Shown: positions 14,551-64,000, counted from the first letter of the stretch. The stretch is DNA of 64,000 nucleotides from an uncultured Verrucomicrobiae bacterium (GCA_963788655.1 CAWBHS010000049.1:128001-192000), one strand, 5' to 3'. Notes: generated by a model not told the origin, from the sequence alone. A program made the numbers and translations.

Positions 14551-17118
14551 CTATTCCTCCGGTTCGCAGGCTACGGGCACCAGACGGTAGAACCGTTGCG
14601 GTAATGCGGGCGGATCGGGATCAACGTACTGCGCCATGCCTTCGTCCACCGGCAAGGTGCAAAGCGGCGTCCAGACCTTGAAGTCCTGCGTGGACTCGAC
14701 GCGGAAACAATGATTCGGATCCATTGGCACGCAGACATTGAACCGGCCGTCTGGCAGGCGAGTACACGGTGGACGCAGGTGATCGTTGTCCACAATAATC
14801 GCCGCCGCGCGGTGCGGTTGGCCGAGGACATATCCGGGCACTGCGGCGTCGTTTTCCAACAGCGTCACAACGACCGTCTCCACCGGTTCGGGCCGGTTGT
14901 CGTCGATTGGCTTGATGATGATCCGCGCACTGCGCTGGCCCGCCGGAATCGTCAACGGACTCGTGATGGCGGCATAGTCCACGCCGTTCGACGCCGTGCC
15001 GCCGAGGGTGAAGAGGATGTCCAGGGGATCGTTCGTCGCCCCAGCGCGGCGCACGACGAACGTGGCAGTGTTCAGGTCAGCGCTGCTGCTGGCACCTTCG
15101 CGGGCGAACGGATCGGTGGCGACAATGGTTACGACCGGCAGCATTGGCGGCGTGCGGTCATGAATGACCACCTCGGCCACGGCGAGCACGGGATCGACGC
15201 GATACCGTTCGATCGGTCCCACTGAGGGATCAGGCTGCAACGCGGCGACCACGGTTTCGTCGCCTTCCATCGCTTCATCGAACAGAGCGGTGACGAGCAA
15301 CTCCACCGATTCCTGGCCTGCGGGAATCTCCACCCAGTCGGGCAGTGGCGGGTAGTCCAGTCGCGGTACGGCGGAACCTCCATGTTGGAGCAGGACCGTC
15401 AACGCGTTTGCCAGGTCACCGCCACGCCGGCTGACGACGAACACGCCAGGCGCCGGCTCGGGTGCGAGACAAGTGTTGGGCGGGCAGAGCGGCTCCTGCG
15501 TTTCCGGGTGGCTGGCGCGGATGCTTACGACCGGAACGGTCGCAACGTCGTTGTCGTGAATCACCACCACCGCGCGGCTGTTCTCGGGATCGATGTTGTA
15601 GGTGGGCAGAATGGCCAAGGGCGAATGCGTTATTTCGGCAATCACGGTTTCGTCGCCTTCGGCGAAATCATCCTCGAGCGGGCCAATGAAAACCTCCACG
15701 GTCGCCGCGCCGGCGGGAAATTCCACCACGGGCGGCGGTGCGGTGTAGTCGGCGCTGCTTGTGGCGGTGCCGCCGTAATGCATCCAGACCCGCAGCGCCT
15801 GAATGGCATCACCGGTGCGCCGCAGCGTGAACACACCGGGCTGGACGCGGGTCGTGGGCGAAGGCTCGGTGGTTTCCGGCACGGTCGCTTCAATCGAAAC
15901 AACCGGCAGCCCGGCGATTACCTGGAGGCGAACCGGAGCCGACGTGACCGCGTTGCCCGCGGTATCGAGCGCGCGAGTGGTGAGGTCATGAATTCCGACG
16001 GGCGCGTCGCGCCACTCGAATTCATGATAAATCGGAGTGCCCGGATCGGGGGCACGGAAAAAGTTAATCGTTGATTCCCCGATTTTCCAGTCGCCATCGA
16101 AGAAATCGACGTGCGTGATCGCACCCTCGAGGTCGATGGCCGTGGCGGCGATGTGGATCGGGCTGCCTTCGCTGAACACTTCCCCGTCGTTCGGCGCGGT
16201 GATTTCCAGACTGGCGGTGGTGATGCCGTCGTCGCGGATAAATACCCGCGCCGACGCGTGCGCCGGGTCGATGTTCACGGAGTAACACGGGATGCCCAGC
16301 GGCGGATCGGTGAGCGGCGGACACTCCGACAGCGTGGCCGCCACCGTTTCAATGGGTTCAGGCAGGTCGTCCACGTTAGGCACCACGTCGATCTCAACGC
16401 GGTTCGTCCCGGCGGGGATGGTTACCAGCCAGGGGAGGAACGGGTAATCCGCGCCCGGCGTCGCCGTGCCGCCATAGTGAACGAACACCGGCTGCCCCTG
16501 TTCGGTCGATCCGGTCCGACTGATGGTAAACCGTCCTCGCAACGCCAAGCGGCGATAGGGATAAGACGATTCCTCCGCGATGGGGCTGGTCGCCTCGATA
16601 CTCACGACCGGCTCGGGCGGTGCTTCGTTATCGTGAATGACGACCTGCGCCGCCGCTTGCGCCGGATCGACTTGATAACGTTCGATTGGCCCCATCGTCG
16701 GATCCGGCAGGACTTGCGCAACGACGGTTTCGTCTCCTTCGGACAGCCGATCGTAGGCTGCCTCAACCAGAAGTTCAACCGACGCCTCGCCTGCGGGAAA
16801 GGAGACGCCACTGGGCAGCGCGGGGTAATCCGTCCCGCTCGTTGCAGTGCCGGCGTAACTCATGCTCACGAACAACTCGCGCGCCAGGTCGCCACCGCTA
16901 CGGGTGACGACGAATACGCCCGGCGCGGGTAGGGCCGCGTCGCAGACGGCGGGATCACAAAAAGGCTCGCGAGTTTCGGCGACCGAGGCGCGAATGCTGA
17001 CGACCGGCACGGTGTCGCCGGTTGAATTCTGCGCCCGCAGTGGCGTAGTGAGAATACCCGGCGCCGCGACGACTAATAGCGCCGCGAGGCAACGAAAGTG
17101 CGACATTGGAGTTCTCAT
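14551..17118 (-). CDS. Secreted Calx-beta-like repeat / Ig-like surface protein with C-terminal RFYR domain
   Basis: Signal peptide and about five repeats of VVSI.A...F.V.R.G...GTA..G.DY...EGDETV; one Big/Ig-like domain (ITAPNDG...VDFFDG); ends in QRFYRLVP. Confidence 0.8.
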   Translation of the reverse strand: MRTPMSHFRCLAALLVVAAPGILTTPLRAQNSTGDTVPVVSIRASVAETREPFCDPAVCDAALPAPGVFVVTRSGGDLARELFVSMSYAGTATSGTDYPALPSGVSFPAGEASVELLVEAAYDRLSEGDETVVAQVLPDPTMGPIERYQVDPAQAAAQVVIHDNEAPPEPVVSIEATSPIAEESSYPYRRLALRGRFTISRTGSTEQGQPVFVHYGGTATPGADYPFLPWLVTIPAGTNRVEIDVVPNVDDLPEPIETVAATLSECPPLTDPPLGIPCYSVNIDPAHASARVFIRDDGITTASLEITAPNDGEVFSEGSPIHIAATAIDLEGAITHVDFFDGDWKIGESTINFFRAPDPGTPIYHEFEWRDAPVGIHDLTTRALDTAGNAVTSAPVRLQVIAGLPVVSIEATVPETTEPSPTTRVQPGVFTLRRTGDAIQALRVWMHYGGTATSSADYTAPPPVVEFPAGAATVEVFIGPLEDDFAEGDETVIAEITHSPLAILPTYNIDPENSRAVVVIHDNDVATVPVVSIRASHPETQEPLCPPNTCLAPEPAPGVFVVSRRGGDLANALTVLLQHGGSAVPRLDYPPLPDWVEIPAGQESVELLVTALFDEAMEGDETVVAALQPDPSVGPIERYRVDPVLAVAEVVIHDRTPPMLPVVTIVATDPFAREGASSSADLNTATFVVRRAGATNDPLDILFTLGGTASNGVDYAAITSPLTIPAGQRSARIIIKPIDDNRPEPVETVVVTLLENDAAVPGYVLGQPHRAAAIIVDNDHLRPPCTRLPDGRFNVCVPMDPNHCFRVESTQDFKVWTPLCTLPVDEGMAQYVDPDPPALPQRFYRLVPVACEPEE

Positions 17119-30826: not shown

Positions 30827-31566
30827 TTACAAGCCGCCAAACCGCCGGTGCCGGCGCGTGTATTCCTCGAGCGCCGCGAAGAACTGCGGTTTGCGGAAAT
30901 CCGGCCAGAGCGTCGGCGTGACCACCAGTTCGGTGTAGGAGATTTGCCAGAGCAGAAAATTGCTGACCCGCATTTCGCCGCTGGTGCGGATCAGCAGGTC
31001 CGGGTCGGGGATGCCCTTGGTGTAGAGGTGCTGCGCGATCACTTGTTCGTTGATCTCGGCCGGATCCAGTTTGCCCTCTTTGACCTTGGCCGCGATGCCG
31101 CGCACCGCTTCCACAATCTCCGTGCGCGCCCCGTAGCTCAACGCCAGGATGAGCGTCAGTCCGTTGTTCTTCTCGAGCGCCGCGATGGTCTTCTTGAGCT
31201 GGTCCTGAACAAATTCCGGCAGCCGGTAGATCTGGCCGATGACTTCGAGGCGCACGTTGTATCTTGTTCAGATCGGCCACCTCGTTTTTGAGATAATGCG
31301 CGAGATACTTCATCAAGCGTATCGACTTCCTCCTTGGGCCGGTTCCAGTTCTCGACGGAGAAAGCGTAAAGCGTGAGATACTTGATGCCCACTTCGCCGG
31401 CAGCGCGCATGATCGCTCGCACGGATTCCGCGCCGTGCCGGTGCCCTTCGACCCGGGGCAAGTTCCGCTGCTTGGCCCAGCGCCCGTTGCCATCCATGAT
31501 GATGGCCACGTGCGTCGGCAGGAGCGCTTTGGCTTGCGGACTGAGATGGGGAGTGTTCGCGCTCAC
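30827..31566 (-). CDS. uppS: Undecaprenyl diphosphate synthase; two frameshifts (about 31313 and 31262)
   Basis: [13 protein letters not shown] and [11 protein letters not shown] in one frame; LALSYG and [23 protein letters not shown] in another. Confidence 0.9.
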
Positions 31567-31600: not shown

Positions 31601-32974
<1,374 letters not shown>

Positions 32975-33202: not shown

Positions 33203-35206
33203 ATGCACCGCCACCATCGCACTGTATTTGCGTGCCCGCGATTTGCTGCTGGAATTTCGGTATTGAAGGGTCAGCGGCTGCTTGCGGGCGTGGCGTTGTG
33301 CTTGGGGTTGCTCGCCCTGGACAGTTCCGCCCAGATTGATGATTCGGCTAAAGTTGCTTTGCCACCAGGCACCCCGCGACTGGAGGATTTGATCAAGACA
33401 CCGATTGTCACCACCCCCTCGAAATTCGAGCAAAAGACCACCGAAGCTCCCTCCTCCGTCACCGTCGTTACGGCGGACGACATCAGGAAATACGGCTACC
33501 GCACACTCGCGGATTTATTGCGGGCAGTGCCCGGTTTGTATGTGAGTTATGACCATAATTATTCCTACCTCGGCTTTCGGGGTTTCAACCGGGGCGACAT
33601 CAACAATCCGAACAACCGCGTGCTGCTGCTGGTTGATGGTCACCGCATCAACAATGATCTGACCGACGGCGCTTACCTGGGCACGGCGTTCATTTTGAAC
33701 GTGGACCTTATCGAGCGGGTCGAGATCATCGAGGGGCCGGGCTCGGTGCTTTACGGCAACAACGCGTTTTTTGGCGTGATCAATGTGGTCACCAAGAATG
33801 GGCGGCAGTACCAGTACGGCGAAGCTTCCGGCGAAGCGGCGAGCTACGACACCTACAAAGGCCGCGTGACCGTGGGCCACTGGTGGACCAATGGTTGGGA
33901 ACTCCTGCTTTCCGGAACACTGTACGACAGCGAGGGGCCCAATCTGGGAGTGCCGCGCCTGGACGACGACAGTTATGGCAGCTTCTTTGGCAAAGTGCGC
34001 TACCGCGACTTGACCCTCGAAGGGGCCTTCATCCGGCGCGACAAGGGCAATCCCACCTCGCTTTTTCTGGCGCCGCCCGGTGATCCGCGACTGCGCACGG
34101 TGGACGACCGTGGTTTTGTGAACCTGAAATACAACCACGATTTTACCGACGTGATGGAAGTTACCGCCCAGATCTATTACGACCGCAATGATTTTACGCT
34201 CGACGTGCCCAATGGCCCGGGATTCACCTCCCAATGGTTGCGCGAAGGCGAATGGTGGGGCGCCGAATTGCAATTGACCAAGCGGTTGTTTGAACGGCAC
34301 ACCTTCACCTTGGGCGCCGAATATCGCGATGATTTTCGACAAAACTGGGAAATCCCAAACGTCACCAACTGGTTTGGCAAAACCAGCAATCACGGCGTTT
34401 ATCTGCAAGGAGATTTTGGCGTCCTCACCAATCTCCATCTCAGCGCCGGGATTCGCTATGATCAGTATGGAGATTTGGAACCCACCTGGAACCCGCGTCT
34501 GGCCCTGATCTGGAATCCCTACCGGCGCGCGACCATCAAAGCGATCTACGGCACCGCCTTTCGCGCGCCGAGTTTTGTGGAGCCGATCATTGCGTATTCC
34601 GGATCGGAACTGATGCCGGAAACCATCAAGACCTACGAACTGATTTATGAGCAGGGCCTCGGACGCCATGTGCGCGCCTCGGTCACGGGCTTTTACAACC
34701 GGATTGATGGGCTCATCGTCTTTTCCGAAACCGCGCGCAACGAAAACCAGGATGTCGAGGCGCTGGGCGTCGAGACGGCGCTTGAGGGGGTTTGGGCCAA
34801 CGGCTTGCGCGGGCGGATCAGCTATACCTATGCGCAGGCGCGGGACCGGGATACCCACCGCATCCTGCCGGACTCCCCACAGCACCTGGCCAAGGCGAAC
34901 CTGATTGTGCCGCTTTACCAGGACAAGGTGTTTGCCGGACTTGAGTATCAATACACCAGCACCCGCTCAACCTTGAAGCTTTTGAATGGCGGACCATACA
35001 CGGTGCCGGGCGAAGACGCTCCGGACTACGGGGTGTTCAACGTTACGTTGTTCAGTCAGAACCTGCTGAAAGGGCTGGAGGTTTCCGCCAGCGTTTACAA
35101 CCTGCTGGACAAACGGTATGCCGATCCGGCAACCGCGCACCATGAGCAGGATCTCATTTATCAGAATGGCCGGACTTTTCAGGTGAAACTGCTTTATCGC
35201 TTTTAA
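33203..35206 (+). CDS. TonB-dependent receptor (YfiR-associated type)
   Basis: Signal peptide, plug motifs (EAPSSVTVVT, LADLLRAVPG, LLLVDG, IERVEIIEGPGSVLYG..GVINVVT) and barrel end VYNLLDK...YRF. Confidence 0.93.
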   Translation: MHRHHRTVFACPRFAAGISVLKGQRLLAGVALCLGLLALDSSAQIDDSAKVALPPGTPRLEDLIKTPIVTTPSKFEQKTTEAPSSVTVVTADDIRKYGYRTLADLLRAVPGLYVSYDHNYSYLGFRGFNRGDINNPNNRVLLLVDGHRINNDLTDGAYLGTAFILNVDLIERVEIIEGPGSVLYGNNAFFGVINVVTKNGRQYQYGEASGEAASYDTYKGRVTVGHWWTNGWELLLSGTLYDSEGPNLGVPRLDDDSYGSFFGKVRYRDLTLEGAFIRRDKGNPTSLFLAPPGDPRLRTVDDRGFVNLKYNHDFTDVMEVTAQIYYDRNDFTLDVPNGPGFTSQWLREGEWWGAELQLTKRLFERHTFTLGAEYRDDFRQNWEIPNVTNWFGKTSNHGVYLQGDFGVLTNLHLSAGIRYDQYGDLEPTWNPRLALIWNPYRRATIKAIYGTAFRAPSFVEPIIAYSGSELMPETIKTYELIYEQGLGRHVRASVTGFYNRIDGLIVFSETARNENQDVEALGVETALEGVWANGLRGRISYTYAQARDRDTHRILPDSPQHLAKANLIVPLYQDKVFAGLEYQYTSTRSTLKLLNGGPYTVPGEDAPDYGVFNVTLFSQNLLKGLEVSASVYNLLDKRYADPATAHHEQDLIYQNGRTFQVKLLYRF

Positions 35207-35272
35207 CCATTGCCGCATTTTCTCATGCAACAATCAGATGCCAAGTTGCGTAAAAACGGTTACCTTCAACCG

Positions 35273-37639
35273 ATGAAACCACCTCCATTTCCACTCTCGC
35301 TCCGCCGTGTTCGCCACGGGCGCTCCGGGAACCGACCGGGTTGGCTGTTGCTCGGGCTGGTCCTTCTTTGGCTGGGTTGCGCGGCCGGGGCCTGGGGCGA
35401 CGAGAATCCCTCCCCGGGCACCCCCGACATCCGCACACAGCCGCAAAGTGTCAATGCGACACCCGGCAGTCAGGTGACGTTCTCATTGGTTGCCAACAGC
35501 ACCTTTGCCATGACGTATCAATGGCGGTTCCTGGGCAAAGACATTCCCTACGCGACCCAATCCTCACTGACCCTGGCGAATGTGGATGCCAGCCTGGCCG
35601 GGGCCTATTCGGTGGAGGTTCGGAATTTCGCCGGTCCAACGGTGAGTGACAACGCGATCTTGCGGATCCACACCACCCGGCAATTGCTCAGTCTGCAGCC
35701 CATTGAAATTCCCGAATTCGGCCCGGCGGAGCCGCCCGCTTCACCGCTGGTCGTGACCAACCTGCCCGGTTTCGTGGATGAGGTTACAGTGAAGGTGTTT
35801 GGCTTCTCGCATGCGTCGCCCGACGATGCGGACATCCTGCTGGTGGGCCCGCGCGACACCGCGGTGTATTTGATGGCGGACGCCGGGGGTGACGATGGCG
35901 TTAGCAACGCTCTGCTGACGTTCCGCGATGCCGCTCCGGCTCCAGTGCCGGACGCCGGGCCGTTTGGTACAGGCTCGTATCAACCTGCCAATTATTTACC
36001 GAACGATGAGGGGCCAACCAACGGCACTGGCTGGCAAATGTCGGCCAACCTGGGCGTGTTCACCAACCTGGATGCGAATGGCCGGTGGAACTTGCGGGTC
36101 ACCGATGATACCCCGGAACACGGTGGGCGCATTAGTGGTGGCTGGGGCTTGGAGTTGACGCTGGCGCTCCCGGAAACCAACGTTTTCATGGTCAACCTGT
36201 GCGGTACCAATGTGACTCCGGCTTCGTCCTCATCGGCCAGCGGCTTCGGATTGGTGCGCCTCGGGGTGGATGGCTCAGTGAGCTATAGCATCGAGATCAA
36301 CGACCTGAGCAGTGAATTCATGGAAGCCGACATTCATGGGCCGGCGGGCAGCGGAACCAATGCTCCCAATCTATTTCGCGTGGACTATTATCCGCACACC
36401 GTTCAGTCCGGCACCTGTGCGGGCAGCCTCGCCGCTTACCTTGGCTCGCAATTGTGGCAATTGCGACAGGGTCTGCAATATCTCGACGTGCGTACCGCCA
36501 ACTTCCCCGCCGGCGAAATCCGCGGTCAAATCGTGCCCTTACCGTTGCCCAAAATTATCGATCCACCGCGGCCGCAATCCGTCCATTTGGGCCACGCGGC
36601 GACTTTCCAGGTTGCCGCCACCAGTCCCGCGCCATTGACCTATCAGTGGCGCTTCAATCGCCAGGCCATTCCCAACGGAACCAACGCCACTCTGACGCTC
36701 GCCAATGTGCTCCAAACCAACGACGGTTTCTACGACGTGGTCGTGAGCAACGCGGCAGGCTCCGCGGTGAGCGTCGTGGCCAAATTGACTGTGCAGCCCA
36801 TTGATTTGATGCCGATCGCCCTGGGTACGCAGGGAACGCAACTCCTGGATAATTATGGCCCGCTCGAGCAAGGCCACAACACTCCTTGCGGTTGGACGGG
36901 TACTTCCGCCCGCTGGCTGGGGCTGCTGCCCGAAACCGAGGGACACTTGATCGTGGACACTTTGGGCAGCAGCATCGACACGATCCTAACGGTTTATACC
37001 GGTGCCGACCAAAACCAGGTCCAATATGTGGATTGCGACGTGGGGGGCGCCGGCGGTGGGCAGAGTTATTGGGACACCGTGGCCACCGGGAATCCTACGA
37101 GCATTGTTCTCGAAGTCGATGGGCAGAATGGTCTCCAGGGCAGCCTGAACGTGAACTGGCGTTTTGGTTGGGATCCCACGATCCTTGATCAACCGACCAA
37201 TTTGACCCTCCTTGCTGGCAGCCCGGCGCAGTTCAACGTCCAGGCCAGCGGCGTGCCGGAACCCCAATACCAATGGCATTTCAATGGCGAAATCATTCCG
37301 GGGGCCACCGAGACCAATTACACGATTGATGCGGCCCTGCCCGAACGGGCTGGCCGCTACGAGGTCATGGTCAGCAATTTCATGGGCACAGTGATGAGTT
37401 CTCCCGCGGAACTTGTGGTGTTGGAACCATCCGTCCTTACTGTCCCGGTATTCGCCGAGGGCGCTTGGCATTTGCACGTCACTGGCGCCCCCTTAGTGAA
37501 GGTGGTGCTGGAAGGGTCGCCGGACCTCAAGCATTGGACCCCGGTGGCCACGAATCAGGTGACCACCGGGGGAGTGGATTTTGTGGATCCGGTGACGGAT
37601 CAAGAACCGCACCGTTTTTATCGCGCGTGGACGTTCTGA
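35273..37639 (+). CDS. Secreted multidomain protein: Ig, proprotein-convertase P-domain-like, CHRD, Ig, beta-sandwich, Ig, RFYR C-terminal domain (alternative starts 35210/35225)
   Basis: Hydrophobic signal and three QP.S...YQW..G.Y.V.V.N Ig repeats. SH..PDD.DILLVGP..NGRWNL marks the P-domain; ADIHGPA...YLDVRTANFPAGEIRGQI marks the CHRD domain. Confidence 0.82.
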   Translation: MKPPPFPLSLRRVRHGRSGNRPGWLLLGLVLLWLGCAAGAWGDENPSPGTPDIRTQPQSVNATPGSQVTFSLVANSTFAMTYQWRFLGKDIPYATQSSLTLANVDASLAGAYSVEVRNFAGPTVSDNAILRIHTTRQLLSLQPIEIPEFGPAEPPASPLVVTNLPGFVDEVTVKVFGFSHASPDDADILLVGPRDTAVYLMADAGGDDGVSNALLTFRDAAPAPVPDAGPFGTGSYQPANYLPNDEGPTNGTGWQMSANLGVFTNLDANGRWNLRVTDDTPEHGGRISGGWGLELTLALPETNVFMVNLCGTNVTPASSSSASGFGLVRLGVDGSVSYSIEINDLSSEFMEADIHGPAGSGTNAPNLFRVDYYPHTVQSGTCAGSLAAYLGSQLWQLRQGLQYLDVRTANFPAGEIRGQIVPLPLPKIIDPPRPQSVHLGHAATFQVAATSPAPLTYQWRFNRQAIPNGTNATLTLANVLQTNDGFYDVVVSNAAGSAVSVVAKLTVQPIDLMPIALGTQGTQLLDNYGPLEQGHNTPCGWTGTSARWLGLLPETEGHLIVDTLGSSIDTILTVYTGADQNQVQYVDCDVGGAGGGQSYWDTVATGNPTSIVLEVDGQNGLQGSLNVNWRFGWDPTILDQPTNLTLLAGSPAQFNVQASGVPEPQYQWHFNGEIIPGATETNYTIDAALPERAGRYEVMVSNFMGTVMSSPAELVVLEPSVLTVPVFAEGAWHLHVTGAPLVKVVLEGSPDLKHWTPVATNQVTTGGVDFVDPVTDQEPHRFYRAWTF

Positions 37640-37656
37640 AGACGCTCTAACCGGCC

Positions 37657-38241
37657 ATGCGACTCAGGGGCATTTCCACAGCGAGTTGGCTGGTTCGTGT
37701 ACTGGCCCTGCTGCCCTTGTTCGCCCTCAGTCCAGGAGCCGGCGGCGCAGAAACGCCAACCTACACACCCTACCAGCACCGCGCCTGGTACATCTATCTG
37801 ATCTCCCAATACACCCAGTGGCCCGACTCCGCGTTTACGAATAGTCCTGCTCCCTTTGTGCTGGGAATTCTGGGGGAAGACCCGTTCCACAAAGACCTGA
37901 ATCTCATCATCGACAAACCGGTCAAGGGTCATCGGCTCAAGGTCCGTTATTTCAAACGGGGCGAGGTCATCGAGGGCTGTCACGCGCTCTACATAGCCGA
38001 CTCCGAAACCGACCAATTGGGGAAACTCCTGCCCCCGTTGGCGCACCGGCCGATTTTGACGTTTGGGGAAATGAAAGGCTTCTTGAAACACGACGGCATC
38101 GTGAAGCTTTGGGTGCGACCGGAAACCAGCGACCAAGGGTATCTTTACTTCCAAATCAACAATACGGCGGCGGAACAAGCCCGACTGCGCATCAGTTCGT
38201 ACGTGCTCAAACTGGCCAAGCCCGAGCCGCCCTCTCCATAA
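37657..38241 (+). CDS. YfiR/HmsC (DUF4154) family periplasmic protein
   Basis: Signal peptide, YTQWP, PFVLGILGEDPF, GCHALYI, PILTFGE and FQINNTAAEQARLRISSYVLKLA. Confidence 0.88.
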   Translation: MRLRGISTASWLVRVLALLPLFALSPGAGGAETPTYTPYQHRAWYIYLISQYTQWPDSAFTNSPAPFVLGILGEDPFHKDLNLIIDKPVKGHRLKVRYFKRGEVIEGCHALYIADSETDQLGKLLPPLAHRPILTFGEMKGFLKHDGIVKLWVRPETSDQGYLYFQINNTAAEQARLRISSYVLKLAKPEPPSP

Positions 38242-38247
38242 CCCGCC

Positions 38248-40539
38248 ATGAAAGCCCTGCAAAATCTTACGCTCCAAGCGAAGCTGACCGCGGTTTTGAT
38301 GCTGACCAGCTCCATCGCGCTGGTCGGCGCCTGTACGGCGTTCGTCGTCTATGAATGGTTTGCTTCCCGGAACCAGGTACAGGTGGAAATTGGCACCCTC
38401 GCCGAAATCGGAGCGCGGGAATGCACCGCGCCGGTCAATTTCGATCGGGAAGAAGAAGTAACCCCCATCCTGGCCAATCTGAGCATTGACCCGCAAATTG
38501 TGGCCGCTTGCATTTACCGGCAGGGCCAGGTCTATGCGAAGTACCCGGGCACCGCCAGCGATTCCCTGTTCCCGGCGCGGCCCCCAACGACGAACCAAGG
38601 CAGCTTTGGCCCCAACACGTTTTCGGTAACGCGCCAGCTTCTTTGGCCGGACGGGAAGCCCCTCATCGGCATTGACGGCAAGCCCCAATTCATTTACGTC
38701 CGGGCCACCCTGGACAAGATGTATGCCCGGCTGTGGCGTTACGTCGGCATCGCCGTCGCCGTTGCTCTCTTTGCGGCTATCGTTGCTTACTTGATCGGCG
38801 CGCGTTTGCGAGGATTGATTTCTCATCCGATCCTGGCCCTGGCGAACACCGCACGCCGGGTTTCGGAACACAAGGATTACTCCGCCCGCGCCGCCGCGGT
38901 GCCCAGCCGCGATGAAGTGAGTGTATTGGTCAACTCCTTCAATGACATGCTGGTCCAGATCCAAAAACGCGACCACGAACTCCGGGAAGCGCGCAACGCC
39001 GCCGAGCGGGCCAACCAGGCCAAAAGCGCCTTTCTCTCCTTCATGAGCCACGAACTCCGCACCCCGCTCACCGCCATTAACGGCTTCAGCGAAATGCTCA
39101 TCATGGATCTGGAAGCCGAAGGCCGCGCGGAATGGCGGGAAGACGTGCGCCGCATCCACGAGTCGGGCAAATACCTGCTCGAACTGATTAACGATATTCT
39201 GGATCTCTCCAAAATCGAAGCCGGCAAAATGGAAGTCCACGTCGAAACCTTCGATGTGTGCCGTCTCATTCGCGAACTGACCGACGTGTTGCGCCCCCTG
39301 ATCGAAGGCAAACGCAATCGGTTGGTTGTGAACTGTCCGCCCACCATTGGCGCCATGCACGCCGATATGATCAAGGTGCGCCAATGCCTGCTGAACCTGC
39401 TGAGCAACGCCAATAAATTCACCGAACAGGGCACGCTCACGCTCACCACGGAACGGATCACCCGGGACGCGACGGACTGGTTGATCTTCCGCGTCCAGGA
39501 CACCGGCATCGGCATGAAGCCGGAGCACCTGCAAAAATTGTTCCGCATGTTCACCCAGGCCGGCGACCGCACCTCGCGCCGATACGGCGGCACCGGACTG
39601 GGCCTGGCGCTCACCAAGCAATTCTGCAAAATGATGCACGGCGATGTGAGCGCCCAAAGCCAGCCAGGCCAGGGTTCCACATTTACCATTGAACTGCCGG
39701 CCAGCACGCCGGATCAAAGCGGCGCAGGATCCGGATCGGCGGCGCCCGCTACGCCGTTGGCGCCGCCCACTCGGCCGCCCGGCGACTGTTTGCTTTCGAT
39801 TGACGATGATCCAGCGGTCCACGAGTTCCTCCGCGAAGCCCTGCAAAATGAGGGTTACCATCTGGCCTTTGCCCGGAGCGGCCCGGAAGGTCTGCGGCTG
39901 GCGAAGGAATTGCAGCCGGCCATTATCACGCTGGACGTGATCATGCCCGAAATGGACGGTTGGGTCGTGCTGGCCCTGCTCAAAGAGGACCGCGAGCTGG
40001 CGCACATCCCCGTGATCATGCTGACCGTCAAGGAACAGCAGGATTTTGCCTTTGCCATGGGCGTGGCCGATTACCTGCACAAGCCCATCGATCGCGACCG
40101 CCTCCTGGCGACACTCGAACAACATCGCCGACCCGCCCACCCGGCCCCGGTTTTGATTGTCGAGGACGACCCGCACATGCGCGAAATGCTCCGGCGCATG
40201 CTGGAACGGGATGACTGGCAGGTGGCCGAAGCGGAAAACGGTCTGGTCGCGCTCGAGCAAATCAAACGCACCCCACCGGCGATGATCGTGCTCGATTTGA
40301 TGATGCCCGTGATGGACGGTTTCCAAATGGTGGCCGAACTGCAAAAGCACGAAGACTGGCGTCACATCCCGATTGTGGTGGTCAGCGCGAAGGAACTGTC
40401 CGCGGACGACCGTCGCCGCTTACAGGGCCACGTCCGGACCATTCTCCAAAAAGGCTCCTTTGGCCGCGAAGAACTAATGCGCGAGGTCAAACAAACCGTC
40501 CGCCTTTTCCTGGCCAGCCAAGAACGAAGTAAACACTAA
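38248..40539 (+). CDS. Hybrid sensor histidine kinase: TM, CHASE8-like, TM, HAMP, HisKA, HATPase, REC, REC
   Basis: MSHELRTPL, NLLSNANKFT, DTGIG and GGTGLGL; two receiver domains (LDVIMPEMDG, LDLMMPVMDG). Confidence 0.93.
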   Translation: MKALQNLTLQAKLTAVLMLTSSIALVGACTAFVVYEWFASRNQVQVEIGTLAEIGARECTAPVNFDREEEVTPILANLSIDPQIVAACIYRQGQVYAKYPGTASDSLFPARPPTTNQGSFGPNTFSVTRQLLWPDGKPLIGIDGKPQFIYVRATLDKMYARLWRYVGIAVAVALFAAIVAYLIGARLRGLISHPILALANTARRVSEHKDYSARAAAVPSRDEVSVLVNSFNDMLVQIQKRDHELREARNAAERANQAKSAFLSFMSHELRTPLTAINGFSEMLIMDLEAEGRAEWREDVRRIHESGKYLLELINDILDLSKIEAGKMEVHVETFDVCRLIRELTDVLRPLIEGKRNRLVVNCPPTIGAMHADMIKVRQCLLNLLSNANKFTEQGTLTLTTERITRDATDWLIFRVQDTGIGMKPEHLQKLFRMFTQAGDRTSRRYGGTGLGLALTKQFCKMMHGDVSAQSQPGQGSTFTIELPASTPDQSGAGSGSAAPATPLAPPTRPPGDCLLSIDDDPAVHEFLREALQNEGYHLAFARSGPEGLRLAKELQPAIITLDVIMPEMDGWVVLALLKEDRELAHIPVIMLTVKEQQDFAFAMGVADYLHKPIDRDRLLATLEQHRRPAHPAPVLIVEDDPHMREMLRRMLERDDWQVAEAENGLVALEQIKRTPPAMIVLDLMMPVMDGFQMVAELQKHEDWRHIPIVVVSAKELSADDRRRLQGHVRTILQKGSFGREELMREVKQTVRLFLASQERSKH

Positions 40540-58799: not shown

Positions 58800-59301
58800 T
58801 TCGCCCCGCCAGAACTCGGTTAGTCTGACACTCCACATCGATTCAGTTGGGAAGGGGAGCGCGCCTGCCCGGGCGCTGTGGTTGGCGCCTCGCCAACCAC
58901 GCTCGATCAGAGCAACTGACTCACTATTCTGATCTCCGGCTTCGGCGTTCTGTCGGATATCAGACATTGGATTTTGGTCTGTCGCTCGGCAAAAAGTACT
59001 CTTTAACCGGCATAATGGAGCTCTTGCCGGTGGCAGCGACTGAGAAACGAGCATCGACTTTGCCCGCTTTTCCCCGCCTTTCTGCGCCGCCTACTCCGGC
59101 AACAGCCGTGCCGTACCGGCAGAACTCGCGCTCAACTGCCTGAGAGTCAATGACGATAGAGCAAAGAGAAAACGCGAGATAGTCCATTGATTTTTGAAGC
59201 GCAATAAGTACCATAGCAACGATTCCGGTACCCGAATAAAACCGTTACCACATAGTCGTATTGTAGTTGTAACCAGCAGTCCAGAAGTGTCTTCAAGCCT
59301 T

Positions 59302-62300
59302 ATGTATAATCCTCACTGTTCCTTCCTGACTTCCGGACCACCTCTTCAATCAACCGCCCGCCAAGGGAGGCGGTCACTCCTGCTAATACTGTGTATGCTG
59401 GTGGGATTGGGAGCAGCGCGCCTGTCGCTGGAAGCCGCGGAAGCCGATCTGAGCATCGCTTGCCCGGACCAAGCCGCCCCCGTAAACATCAACAGCGCCG
59501 TTACGTACACGATTGGGGTCACCAATCTCGGAGCTTCAGCCGCAACCAGCGTGCAGGTGACCGACGTGCTCCCGCTTCCATTTGCCTTCGTCTCGGCCAA
59601 TGCCAGCCAGGGAAGCTGCAGCCAGCAAAACGGCACGGTCGTTTGCAACCTGGGCGACTTGGGCGTCAGTGCCACCGCGACCATCACCGTGGTCGCAACC
59701 GCCCAACGCAGCGGGGTGTACGCGAACGAGGTTTCTGTGGTTGCCAATGAAACCGATCCAGTTCCCAACAACAACCTCGCGAGTGGCAACGCTACGGTGA
59801 TTCTGCCTGCCGTTTCGTTTGCCACCGGCGAAACCATTTTGCTGGGGGACATACTTCCCGGCGCGGCGACTCCCTATCCGTCCACGATCACCGTCTCCGG
59901 TCTGACTTCCACCGTGTACAAAGTCACCGCGACCCTTCGGAATCTGGCCCACGATTACCCCCAAGATGTCGATGTGTTGCTGGTCGGTCCGCAAGGACAA
60001 AGCGTGCTATTGATGTCCGACGCCGGCGGCCCAGACGCCATCACCAACGTCACCCTCACCTTCGACAGCGCCGCCATCGACTTGGTCCCGAGACTGGATG
60101 CAGTTCTTTCGGGCACGTACCGGCCCACCGACTACGGCACCACCGTAGGCGACACAGCGGATAATTTTCCCGCCCCGGCCCCCGGGCGTCCGTGGGGCTC
60201 GGCGATGACGGTGTTCAACGGCACCAATCCCAACGGCGTATGGTCGCTCTACGTGGTGGATGATCTTTCGGAGTACGGTGGCAGTCTCGAGAACGGCTGG
60301 AGTCTTAACATCCAAACGGTTTCGCCGCTGAACGATTTGGGAGTCGCTCTAGTTGCCCAACCGGATTCCATCGCCGTGGGAGCCGACCTCACCTATTCCC
60401 TGGCCGTCAGCAACCAAGGTCCGGCGTCGGCCATCAATGTCGTGGTCACCAATCGTCTGCCAGACAATGTGAATTTCGTTTCGGCCACGGCCAGCCAGGG
60501 GAGTTGCTCGCAAGCGGGCGGTGTGGTGACTTGCACGATTGGCAACCTGGGAGTCAACGGCATCGCAACCGTGGAAATTATCGTTACTACAACGACGACG
60601 GGCAACCTTACCGCAACCGTCGGCGTCACCGCCCTCAACACCGATCCCAACTTAGCCAACAACGGCGCCACTGCAACCACCGCCGTTCTGAACCCGCCGA
60701 TGATCGTCACCTCGCCCACCAGCTTGACCCGTGTGCCGGGGCAATCGGCAGCGTTCACTGTCACGGCCACCGGTGATTCACTCAGCTACCAATGGCAAAA
60801 AGGAGGCGTTGACGTGTCTGGCGCCACCGCAGCGACGCTGACATTTGATCCCGTGCAACTGGCGGACGCCGGCGACTACACCGTGCGCGTCAGCAATCCG
60901 GTCGGCACCGTGGTGAGCGATCCGGCGACCTTGACGGTCCAGGCGCCGCCGCCCATTACGTCGCCGCCGCAGAGCCGGACCAACATTGCGGGCACTACGG
61001 CGACCTTCACCGTGGTTTCCTCAAATCCCGGTCCCCTGACTTACGCCTGGTATTTCCAAGGAACTCAACTACTGCCTGGCGCCGATACGGCCACCCTGAC
61101 CTTGCCCAATGTGCAGTTGGCCAGCGCTGGAGCCTATCATGTTGTCGTGACCGGTCCCGGCGGCAGCTCGACGAGCAGCACCGCCAACCTGACCGTGTGG
61201 GAAGTGGACTTTGGCGATGCCCCGGCTCCGTACCCAACGCTCCTGGCCAACGACGGTGCCCGCCACATTCTTGTGCCGGGCGTTTTCCTGGGGCTGCGGG
61301 TGGATCATGAAACTGATGGCGCACCATCGGCGGATGCCTTGGGTGACGACAGTGCCGGTTCACCTGACGATGAGGATGGCGTGACGTTGAACGGTCCCTG
61401 GCTTGCGGGTCAGACCGTTTCGATCACCGTCGTTGCTTCCGTGAGCGGCTCGTTAAACGCCTGGGCCGATTTCAATGGCAATGGAAGTTGGGCGGACGCG
61501 GGGGAACAAATCTTTGCGGACCAAATGCTGACCGCCGGAGCGAATGAATTGACGGTGGCAGTTCCGGCGGACGCGAATATGGGAACCTGTCTCGTGCGTT
61601 TCCGTTTCAACACGGCCGGCAACCTGTCCTTTGCCGGTCTGGCTCAAGACGGCGAAGTCGAGGACTACGCGGTGACCATCAACGCGTCGGCGGACGTGGC
61701 GATCACCGCCAGCGGTCTGCCGGCAACCATTCCTACCGGAAACAACCTGACCTTCAATCTGCTGGCCAACAACCAGGGTCTTTCAGCGGCTACCACCGTG
61801 CTGGTCACCAATTACCTGCCGACCGGGTTCAGTTTTGTTGCCGCCACCCCGAGCCAGGGCAGTTGCCAACAGGCCGACGGTATCGTGCGTTGCGATCTGG
61901 GAACTCTGGCGCCATCCGCCAGCGCGACCATTGCCATTGAAGTGCTTCCCGCCACCGCCGGGACATTTGACAACCGGGCTACGATTGTGGCGGCGCCGAC
62001 GGATCCGGTTTCCAATAACAACACGGCGTTAACCACCGTCATCGTGTTGGAGCCTCCCACCATTCTGACACCGCTTCAAAGCATCAATGCGACCAATGGG
62101 GACACGGTAATTTTCAGCGTGCAAGCCGGCGGGACTTCGCTGGCTTATCAATGGCAACGTAATGGGACCGATTTGCCTGAGGCCAGGAGCGCCACCCTGA
62201 CGCTGGATCCCGTGCAGCCCGGCGATGCGGGGGATTACACGGTTTCAGTCACCAACGACGTGGGCGCAGTCCTGAGTAGCGCGGCCACGCTGACCGTGGT

Positions 62301-64000
62301 CGTGCCGCCTTACATCATCCAGCAGCCGGAGTGCAAAACTGCAACGGAGGGTGACAACTATACCTTCAGCGTGGTCGCCGACGGCGATCCGGTGCCGACG
62401 TATCAATGGCGCAAAGATGGACTCGAACTCACGGGCCAGACCAATCCAACGTTGGAGTTATTGAACATCCAATCCGGCAACGCCGGGGATTACCAAGTGG
62501 TCGTATCCAGCACGTTGGGCGCGGTGACCAGCATCGTGGCTCGTCTGGCCGTGCGCGCTCCAGGCGACCCGGCCTATCCCGATCCGCAAGGCGGTTGGGC
62601 GTACGAGTATTCCGGCGACAGTGTTGCTACCGCACCCACGGCGGCGCTGGATGGTACGTGGAATCACGAATTCGATTCGTGGGGTGGCGATGGTCGTGGT
62701 CCCGGCGTCGGCGCCCCGGGTGGTGTCGGCACCGCCAATGGTGTGTTGACCATCGAGGATGACGTGAGCAGCGTGATCGGTCTGAACGACAATCGCCGCA
62801 TTTATTTCACCCACAACCTCCAACGCGAAACGTCTGCGGCCACTGCCAGCACCGTCCTGGACAACGGGATCACTTTGAGCTTTCGGATGCGGTTGACGCC
62901 GCCCGCGCCGACGGATCCCCTCACCGAATTAGCGCCGGCTCCAAATGGCGGGGTCAACAAGGACTTGGGCAAAGGCATGATCGGTGTGCGGCAAGGCGGC
63001 AACGGTAGCGGCATTATTTCGTTCAGCTTGAACCAGGCTCTGGAAGACACCAGTCCAACGACCACCCAAAACTTCGGCCAGTCGGGGCTGCACATGAATA
63101 ACCTGTCCACGTTCAACGCCTTTGTCGATCCGGGCCTGCCGGGCACGCTGAACCTGCTGCCGCTGGACCCAACGGTCTTTCACCAGTTTTGGATCACAAT
63201 TCAGGACAACGGCGCCGAGGACGGCACCCATCGCGTGTCAATCTACGTCGATGGCAGTCTGACACCGACGGTCTTCAATGTGACCGCCGGCGCCGGCGTG
63301 GACCTGCCGTCCTCGGATGCGACGGCCACCAATTACCTGGCGCTGGGTCAAAGCAGCACCCCCCAAGTAGGAGCGTTTGACCTGGATTTCCTGGCGTACA
63401 AACCCGGAGTCATTCCGCCAACAGGTTTCGACGATCCGGTAACCATTGTTAGCTCGCCGGTCAGCCAAGTGATCGCCGAAGGTGAAGTCGCCACATTCAA
63501 TGTCGGCGTGACTGGTTCGCCACCGATCACTTTCCAATGGTTTAAAGACGGCACGGCCATCAGTGGCGCCGCCAGCGATTCTTACACCACGCCACCGATC
63601 GTGCCGGCTGATGACGGCGCGGAATTTACGGTGGTGGTCGATAATTTCTGCGGCAGTGTCACCAGCGCCCCAGTGACGTTGCGGCTCCTGCAGGCCCCGC
63701 AAATCGTGACGCAGCCGCCAAGCCTGGTGGTGACCAACGGCGATCCTGCCAGCTTCAGTGTTGCGGTCACCGCGAGAAGGGAACATCACCTACCAGTGGC
63801 GATTGAACGGAATTGATCTACCCGGCGCGAACGCGGCCACGCTCTCGCTGGCCAGTGCGCAACCGGGCGATGCGGGAAGCTATGACGTGGTGATCGCAAA
63901 TGACGCCGGCTCCGTGACCAGCGCGGTAGCGACGTTGACCGTGCGACTGATGGACTACGGCGATGCGCCCTCGCCCTTCCCGACGCTGACCGTTGACAAT
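59302..64000 (+). CDS. Giant surface protein (DUF11, P-domain-like, Ig, GEVED repeats); frameshift near 63775; runs off the window end
   Basis: Signal region, three DUF11-like repeats, many YQW Ig repeats and DFGDAP...DGEVEDY. After 63775 the +1 frame continues EGNITYQWRLNG...MDYGDAP to the edge. Confidence 0.85.

Follow-up and report, generated by a model that had tools for sequence, protein, structure and literature searches.

We analysed a 64,000-nucleotide (nt) stretch of DNA (the window) from an uncultured Verrucomicrobiae bacterium (GCA_963788655.1 CAWBHS010000049.1:128001-192000), of an order which we take to be probably Pedosphaerales/Limisphaerales. At 33203-40539 it carries four intact, co-oriented open reading frames (ORFs) on the + strand, encoding a TonB-dependent receptor (TBDR; the barrel), an exported protein with immunoglobulin-like (Ig) domains (the partner), a YfiR-like protein and a CHASE8-HAMP hybrid kinase (Table 1). 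A preliminary description of the locus had reported four co-oriented genes with gaps of 17 nt ahead of yfiR and 6 nt ahead of the kinase gene, and both coordinates and gaps agree with ours. It had also pointed to a TonB barrel and a two-receiver kinase in a system that lacks YfiB and GGDEF; the Pfam matches of the four proteins bear this out, with no GGDEF or OmpA domain among them. The barrel-yfiR-kinase trio is already known in outline, and the Ig gene, fourth of the set, is the new part. The order TBDR-Ig-yfiR-kinase recurs at 10 loci in 8 families of the order, which takes it beyond chance. The source genome (G000, 86% complete) has a single yfiR and a single barrel of this kind. A terminator scan gave the same result as the shuffle background (10 vs 9.9), and a promoter scan was likewise at background.

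Table 1. Features of the four-gene locus (window coordinates)
Feature	Position	Strand	Basis
TonB-dependent receptor, clade A, 667 amino acids (aa)	33203-35206	+	Pfam PF07715 + PF00593; AlphaFold2 (AF2) model; fold match; tree
Barrel N-terminal helix (aa 60-65), consensus L-S/T-L-E-E-L-M, then TonB-box-like strand	33380-33427	+	Model helix H18-23
Exported Ig partner protein, 809 aa from TTG	35210-37639	+	ORF, Pfam, same-genus orthologue
Specialised first Ig domain (Ig1) of the partner, I-set fold	35411-35686	+	AF2 predicted local distance difference test (pLDDT) 92.9; I-set fold matches, template-modelling (TM) score about 0.8
Ig1 BC loop S-T-F-A-M, replacing generic G-x-x-P	35498-35512	+	Between strands B and C in model
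Variable cargo: proprotein-convertase P-like and CHRD domains	35702-36532	+	Pfam; P-like start from tblastn paralog match
Lineage-wide tail domain ending RFYR	37430-37636	+	104 ORFs of the genome end in this tail
YfiR-like periplasmic protein (DUF4154), 194 aa	37657-38241	+	Pfam 112 bits; NF053591 98.2 bits
Hybrid histidine kinase, 763 aa	38248-40539	+	Pfam; NF053592 173.3 bits

Linkage of the Ig gene to one clade of barrels

The AF2 model of the barrel (pLDDT 91.8, predicted TM score 0.92) shows, behind the signal peptide, a short periplasmic helix, a TonB-box-like strand, a plug and a 22-strand barrel with short loops and a C-terminal Phe. Its best fold matches are BtuB/Cir (TM score about 0.8), and by this comparison plug and barrel are of the ordinary TBDR type. 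Neither Pfam nor the model gave a FecA-type N-terminal signalling domain, the distance between signal peptide and plug being ~37 residues. The short modelled strand ahead of the plug resembles a TonB box, and TonB_C and ExbB matches are found elsewhere in the genome. The N-terminal helix is conserved in two clades of trio barrels (A and B, see below) and is visible in distant trio barrels, while the profile positions that hold it (1-21) were unmatched by any of 54 solved TBDR sequences. We infer that the helix and the TonB-box region are a candidate YfiR-docking element.

Among named records, the barrel is closest to ones from Verrucomicrobiota. When 401 genomes of the order were searched, 43 matches of at least 590 bits (clade A) came up, in 40 genomes and 21 families, and the next score was 516; no barrel of clade-A level was found outside the order in a 401-genome sample of the phylum. 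In a tree of 66 barrels (built, like all our trees, with FastTree, and leaving out six barrels that were broken, partial or unparsed) the 40 clade-A rows comprise 32 with an Ig gene next to them and 8 without, as against 0 of 26 other barrels, 22 of which have yfiR next. With 14 distant trio barrels as root, clade A forms a single branch (Shimodaira-Hasegawa support 100) nested in the yfiR-next barrels; thus the Ig partner was gained once. Compared with clade B, the outer loops L7 and L8 of clade A are shorter by 4.7 and 6.2 aa and L10 is longer by 8.3 aa, L4 and L5 differ too, and several Tyr/Asn/Asp/Pro positions fixed in clade B are lost. Such loop remodelling and residue losses fit a changed ligand. 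The window barrel itself is divergent, with a loop L2 shorter by 14 aa. Two clade members (L081 and L091) have an internal stop and are possibly decaying copies.

The Ig gene lies directly downstream of 35 of the 43 clade-A barrels and divergently upstream of one more (36/43 in all), and yfiR is likewise found at 36 of the 43 loci. The preliminary description placed the Ig gene inside the operon. This holds for the 12 loci with the order barrel-Ig-yfiR, 10 of which run straight into the kinase; at 19 loci, however, the Ig gene follows the barrel while yfiR-kinase is divergent from the pair. One further locus has the Ig gene divergent from barrel-yfiR-kinase, and four have barrel-Ig and no visible yfiR. 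The Ig gene therefore travels with the barrel rather than with yfiR, and the link survives three gene orders. At some loci (L076:7924-11292, L103:7913-8317, L080, L092 and L098) an inverted Ig/tail gene or small unrelated inserts replace the partner; these may be decaying copies.

A metagenome set, kept separate from the genome loci and containing some near-duplicates, gave a similar picture. Among the best 80 of 483 related stretches, all clade A, an Ig gene lies no more than 660 nt downstream in 67, the stretch is too short in 8, and 5 are exceptions, so that 67 of the 72 informative loci have the Ig gene directly downstream. In one of the five the Ig gene is at ~770 nt; a further two, apparently one and the same sequence, carry it upstream in divergent orientation, and the last two stop within ~650 nt. 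As a control we took 19 lower-scoring (clade-B) loci, leaving out locus L112, where the contig ends 56 nt past the barrel: all 19 contain yfiR and none a downstream Ig gene. Clade-B barrels in the same genomes as clade A also lack an Ig neighbour downstream. We concluded that the Ig gene beside the clade-A barrel, counted at about a hundred loci, is a conserved companion and no chance insertion.

The Ig partner and its specialised first domain

The start of the partner gene is uncertain (TTG 35210, ATG 35225 or ATG 35273). The secreted multidomain protein of ~790 aa that had been predicted here corresponds to the 788 aa read from ATG 35273 (Table 1 gives the TTG length), with signal peptide and Ig, P and CHRD domains as described. 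The layout is signal peptide, Ig1, P-domain, CHRD, Ig2, an unassigned beta domain, Ig3 and C-terminal tail; Pfam finds the three Ig domains, the P-domain at 25 bits (cut-off 21) and CHRD at 52.6 bits. An orthologue from the same genus is 42% identical, and it is the only one among 22 scanned partners that has P and CHRD. The neighbourhood survey suggested in the preliminary description, for an Ig/CHRD gene in orthologous loci, thus gave a divided answer: the Ig companion is conserved, and CHRD/P is confined to the genus. For the same reason CHRD/P was rejected as a functional core.

Partner lengths across loci range from 200 to 1725 aa, and the smallest (200-232 aa) consist of signal peptide, Ig1 and tail with no middle. 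In the 22 scanned partners the middle is absent or made up of Ig repeats, RCC1, FG-GAP/ASPIC, DUF11, Kelch/NHL, cadherin-like, fn3, beta-helix or LamG domains. What is constant is the signal peptide, the first Ig and, mostly, the C-terminal RFYR tail. An Atlas search with a minimal partner returned only Ig clusters, mostly from Verrucomicrobiota. In five minimal partners (L074, L081, L086, L093 and L107) the first Ig contains an additional Leu-rich insertion, which may be a binding loop specific to a subfamily. At two loci a tandem second partner gene has its own S-type first Ig (L035:5562-9998 and L079:10599-13277), so one barrel may read two partners.

The first Ig differs from the others at its N-terminus and in its BC loop. 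The N-terminus, BC and FG loops make up one pole of an I-set domain. The Ig1 family begins (Q/A)-x-G-x-P-P, and when the BC loops of 88 Ig1 and 336 generic domains were compared, Ig1 showed S in 85% and T in 78%, vs G in 81% and P in 76% of the generic domains. The strict S-x-T motif occurs in 61 of 87 coupled Ig1 but in 60 of 3246 parsed background Igs (a further 120 background domains were unparsed, and giant Ig-repeat proteins from the representative search served as background only). A looser form of the loop rule is found in 2 of 66 later Igs of the partner proteins. An effect of N-terminal position as such is disfavoured, on small control sets: the S-type loop was present in 1 of 7 N-terminal Igs of uncoupled exported proteins and in 0 of 5 N-terminal Igs other than partner-type copies beside a clade-A barrel. 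The Ig1 loop is distinct from generic and other N-terminal Igs across 21 families. When an Ig1 profile built from metagenome sequences only was run against 52 genomes (at most 99 candidates scored per genome), the top 12 matches were all barrel-adjacent Ig1.

The tail is far more widespread than the barrel. Of 41 genomes of the order 40 contain it, and the source genome holds 110 Ig-carrying and 104 tail-bearing ORFs; so distributed, it is a general tag rather than one peculiar to the system. No convincing match was found in Pfam or NCBIfam, and TIGR04183 (Por_Secre_tail) reached only ~13 bits (cut-off 23), on Ig regions and not on the tail. We regard the tail as a candidate export or surface-retention tag. 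Another protein of the window (14551-17118, - strand) ends in the same domain, and a 1540-aa DUF11/P-domain/GEVED/Ig protein at 59194-63816 (+ strand) has its P-domain region in common with the partner.

YfiR, the kinase and comparison with known systems

The YfiR-like protein matches PF13689 well above the cut-off of 24.9 bits, and its hydrophobic N-terminus qualifies as a signal peptide. It matches NF053586 below cut-off, and a phmmer search against PDB gave nothing at E<=1. By these matches it is a distant member of the YfiR family. Homologues were found in 27 of 41 genomes of the order. Forty of the 52 other yfiR matches in the order were taken for neighbourhood analysis, of which 32 have a TBDR match and 36 a kinase match nearby. 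Trio-type proteins are abundant, with 3183 at E<=1e-100 among 8000 candidates scored.

The kinase is built as transmembrane segment, CHASE8, transmembrane segment, HAMP, HisKA, HATPase and two receivers, and the H-box and both receiver aspartates are present in the sequence. CHASE8 scores 25.1 bits, just below the cut-off of 27 (up to 57.5 bits in relatives), and HAMP 33.9 bits. No response regulator is encoded in the operon itself. At locus L071 a stand-alone receiver and a receiver-adenylate cyclase come after the close kinase homologue, and at L094 a receiver-adenylate cyclase does. Homologues of both L071 outputs exist in the source genome, the receiver at 69% identity (L221, G000:C11:55896-56824) and the receiver-adenylate cyclase at 43% (L222, G000:C38:157428-158861). 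With such genes beside related kinases and their homologues in this genome, a cyclic AMP output of the window kinase is conceivable and, from gene context, plausible. The genome also contains a second CHASE8-HAMP-PAS kinase, split over two frames and with no yfiR adjoining (L220, G000:C56:12969-17695, - strand), which is preceded by a gene with an N-terminal receiver-like start; its single YfiR may control two sensors. Loci L078, L114, L122 and L040 each bring together two to three trio barrels with one or two yfiR genes, all feeding common kinases, and L078 combines a clade-A barrel and its partner with two clade-B barrels.

In YfiBNR of P. aeruginosa, as in AwsXRO and Yersinia HmsCDE, a periplasmic DUF4154 protein is found beside a membrane CHASE8/PAS-HAMP sensor, just as in the window, where the conserved Phe of the 'AAVVF' patch is retained (there APVNF, consensus aal.F); the OmpA-like YfiB and the GGDEF output are replaced here by a TBDR with an exported Ig protein and by a kinase. 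YfiR binds YfiB via a conserved surface, and the same surface is predicted to bind YfiN as well (Li et al., 2015, PMC4655355), and redox control of HmsC is covered by PMC8846402. YfiR of the YfiBNR system has two Cys pairs, whereas the mature window protein has one cysteine, as do 42 of 63 homologues, so that disulfide redox input is unlikely. By analogy with these systems, YfiR would repress the kinase sensor of the window by direct binding. Modules with YfiR and PAS/HAMP kinase outputs and no YfiB, including one in Opitutus terrae, have been described, as has the repression of a PAS/HAMP sensor by YfiR (Malone et al., 2012, PMC3375315). These modules resemble the window in gene content. They differ in that the word TonB has 0 occurrences in the main text of that paper, where neither an outer-membrane input nor a secreted partner is put forward. 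The trio as such is modelled in NCBIfam by NF053590 (TOL_0244 TBDR), NF053591 (TOL_0243 YfiR-like) and NF053592 (kinase associated with YfiR-like), each of which is matched by a window protein, but clade-A members carry a fourth gene that has no NCBIfam model.

The novelty assumed for the locus in the preliminary description is therefore reduced to the partner: YfiR with a kinase and no YfiB is in print and the trio is in NCBIfam. No publication was found on the signal of the trio or on the fourth gene in the literature searched, which mostly did not cover subscription papers. A dedicated Ig partner, specialised at its N-terminus and tied to one barrel clade, is the new part by that search.

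In FecA/FecR/FecI, HasR/HasA and PrhA, too, the outer-membrane sensor is a TBDR, and HasR binds a protein that the cell itself secretes. The window differs from FecA-type signalling in its kinase output, and no N-terminal signalling domain, anti-sigma factor or extracytoplasmic-function sigma factor is encoded in the operon. The idea that the locus is an alternative to FecA-type signalling fits a barrel lacking that domain and a kinase with YfiN-type CHASE8-HAMP input.

A possible signalling route and its rivals

Beyond the observed gene content, barrel-Ig linkage, special first Ig and single origin of the linkage, we propose that Ig1 docks on the barrel as a ligand and that the signal passes via YfiR to the kinase, a tentative reading that is possible and somewhat short of probable. 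Once exported, the partner would be retained at the cell surface or released from it by means of the lineage-wide tail, with a stalk that varies in length. Docking on the remodelled extracellular loops would be through the N-terminal pole of Ig1, made up of mature N-terminus and BC loop, and, probably with TonB, it would expose the N-terminal helix and TonB-box region of the barrel in the periplasm. The exposed region might then pull YfiR off CHASE8, as YfiB does for YfiN, and the freed kinase would phosphorylate its own receivers and a stand-alone receiver (in two related loci then a receiver-adenylate cyclase). In this way a cell could sense its own or a neighbour's surface protein, that is, contact, density or attachment. 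The fuller version, in which an I-set Ig ligand and a barrel pair up on the same or a neighbouring cell, the barrel helix titrates YfiR, and the outcome is contact, kin or density sensing, is rather doubtful. If docking is correct, Ig1 would be the first defined ligand for a widespread, unstudied TBDR-YfiR-kinase trio. Real binding would also extend bacterial trans-envelope signalling by a protein signal that the cell makes itself, and would connect the abundant tail-bearing exoproteins of Verrucomicrobiota, so far uncatalogued, with a regulatory circuit. Since the candidate ligand is genetically encoded in an easily expressed domain of 95 residues, the barrel/YfiR/kinase question is testable in a laboratory host without knowledge of a small-molecule signal.

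Several observations weigh against such a dedicated pair. Seven of the 43 clade-A loci have no Ig1 partner adjoining the barrel (in four the contig stops within 0.3-1.2 kb, in two no partner appears over 3-5 kb, and in one the Ig gene is inverted), the partner of L104 has no Ig1, and 2 of the 19 clade-B loci have an upstream Ig gene (L113, with a generic loop, and L121). All linked loci are of one origin, so the counts are not independent. The Ig1 signature consists of only a few small polar residues. In the 26 genomes with known adjacency, the adjacent Ig1 is the top match for the profile in 16 and not the top in 6, with 4 left uncalled. The window Ig1 is atypical itself: it lacks the strict S-x-T, comes 8th among the genome's 271 Ig domains by Ig1-vs-generic log-odds and does not come out top in its own genome. 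Its divergence is in step with that of its barrel and YfiR. The NCBIfam matches of the trio are all under their cut-offs (NF053590 137.6/645, NF053591 98.2/125 and NF053592 173.3/194). Co-divergence does not help to decide. In a mirror-tree analysis (n=50) the barrel correlates better with Ig1 (0.58) than with the tail (0.28), but Ig1 tracks the membrane strands of the barrel (rho 0.60) no less closely than its outer loops (0.54), and in a set of 21 the tracking weakens with increasing distance from the barrel gene (Ig1 0.86, Ig2 0.71). With this decay and no loop preference, gene linkage alone can explain the result, and co-divergence was rejected as evidence of barrel-Ig1 contact because the controls fit linkage equally.

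Two other explanations were weighed. The partner could be an accessory lid or capture arm at the surface, of which SusD, TbpB and HasA are examples; Ig1 would anchor it and the variable middle would capture an outside ligand (glycan or protein) as the real signal. The linkage and the Ig1 signature are equally expected here, propellers of binding type, lectin-like domains or stalk domains make up many of the middles, and the barrel is short-looped and open-mouthed. We consider it unlikely, with several partners of 200-232 aa having no middle and others plain Ig repeats, and with unrelated middles accompanying barrels that average 62% identity. It is also improbable, in our view, that the partner is a co-inherited and co-regulated adhesin with no physical link to the barrel, whose 5' end is kept while Ig-repeat recombination swaps the 3' part. 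A co-divergence that declines away from the barrel gene, the lack of a loop-specific signal and the single origin of the linkage all suit an adhesin, and with so many Ig-carrying and tail-bearing ORFs in the genome such neighbours are plentiful. Yet the link outlasts rearrangement into three gene orders, including divergent transcription, the Ig1 loop sets it apart from generic and other N-terminal Igs across 21 families, minimal forms carry no adhesive cargo, and clade-B barrels in the same genomes have no such neighbour.

The docking proposal must also be set against two readings in which the tail matters more. In Porphyromonas, the C-terminal domain of PorA directs secretion and also binds PorY in the periplasm (PMC12152298; see also PMC7712824). 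Like the proposed partner, PorA is a secreted protein with a C-terminal sorting domain that acts as a two-component ligand; it binds the kinase directly via that domain, whereas in the window the specialised part is an N-terminal Ig, with TBDR and YfiR in between. By this precedent, and with the lineage-wide tail on the partner, the un-exported protein could bind YfiR, CHASE8 or the periplasmic face of the barrel and report on the export of tail proteins. Such a periplasmic secretion monitor is distinctly unlikely: in divergent loci the gene keeps to the barrel and not to yfiR-kinase, Ig1 rather than the tail is specialised, and the barrel changes are in the outer loops. Finally, the single-copy barrel adjoins one of 104 tail-bearing ORFs and might be an export, shuttle or anchoring channel for all of these proteins. 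This is very improbable for a plug and barrel of ordinary TBDR type, and as a general handler of tail proteins the barrel was rejected, since clade-A barrels were found in only 5 of the 40 tail-positive genomes.

Outside the operon, two upstream genes on the - strand (31601-32928 and 30827-31566), whose motifs suggest an adenylosuccinate synthetase-like and an undecaprenyl diphosphate synthase-like product, are each broken over two frames. The assembly seems to contain frameshifts, which leave the four operon genes unaffected. Long antisense ORFs at 37618-40365 and 33515-34951 were taken as coding-strand shadows.

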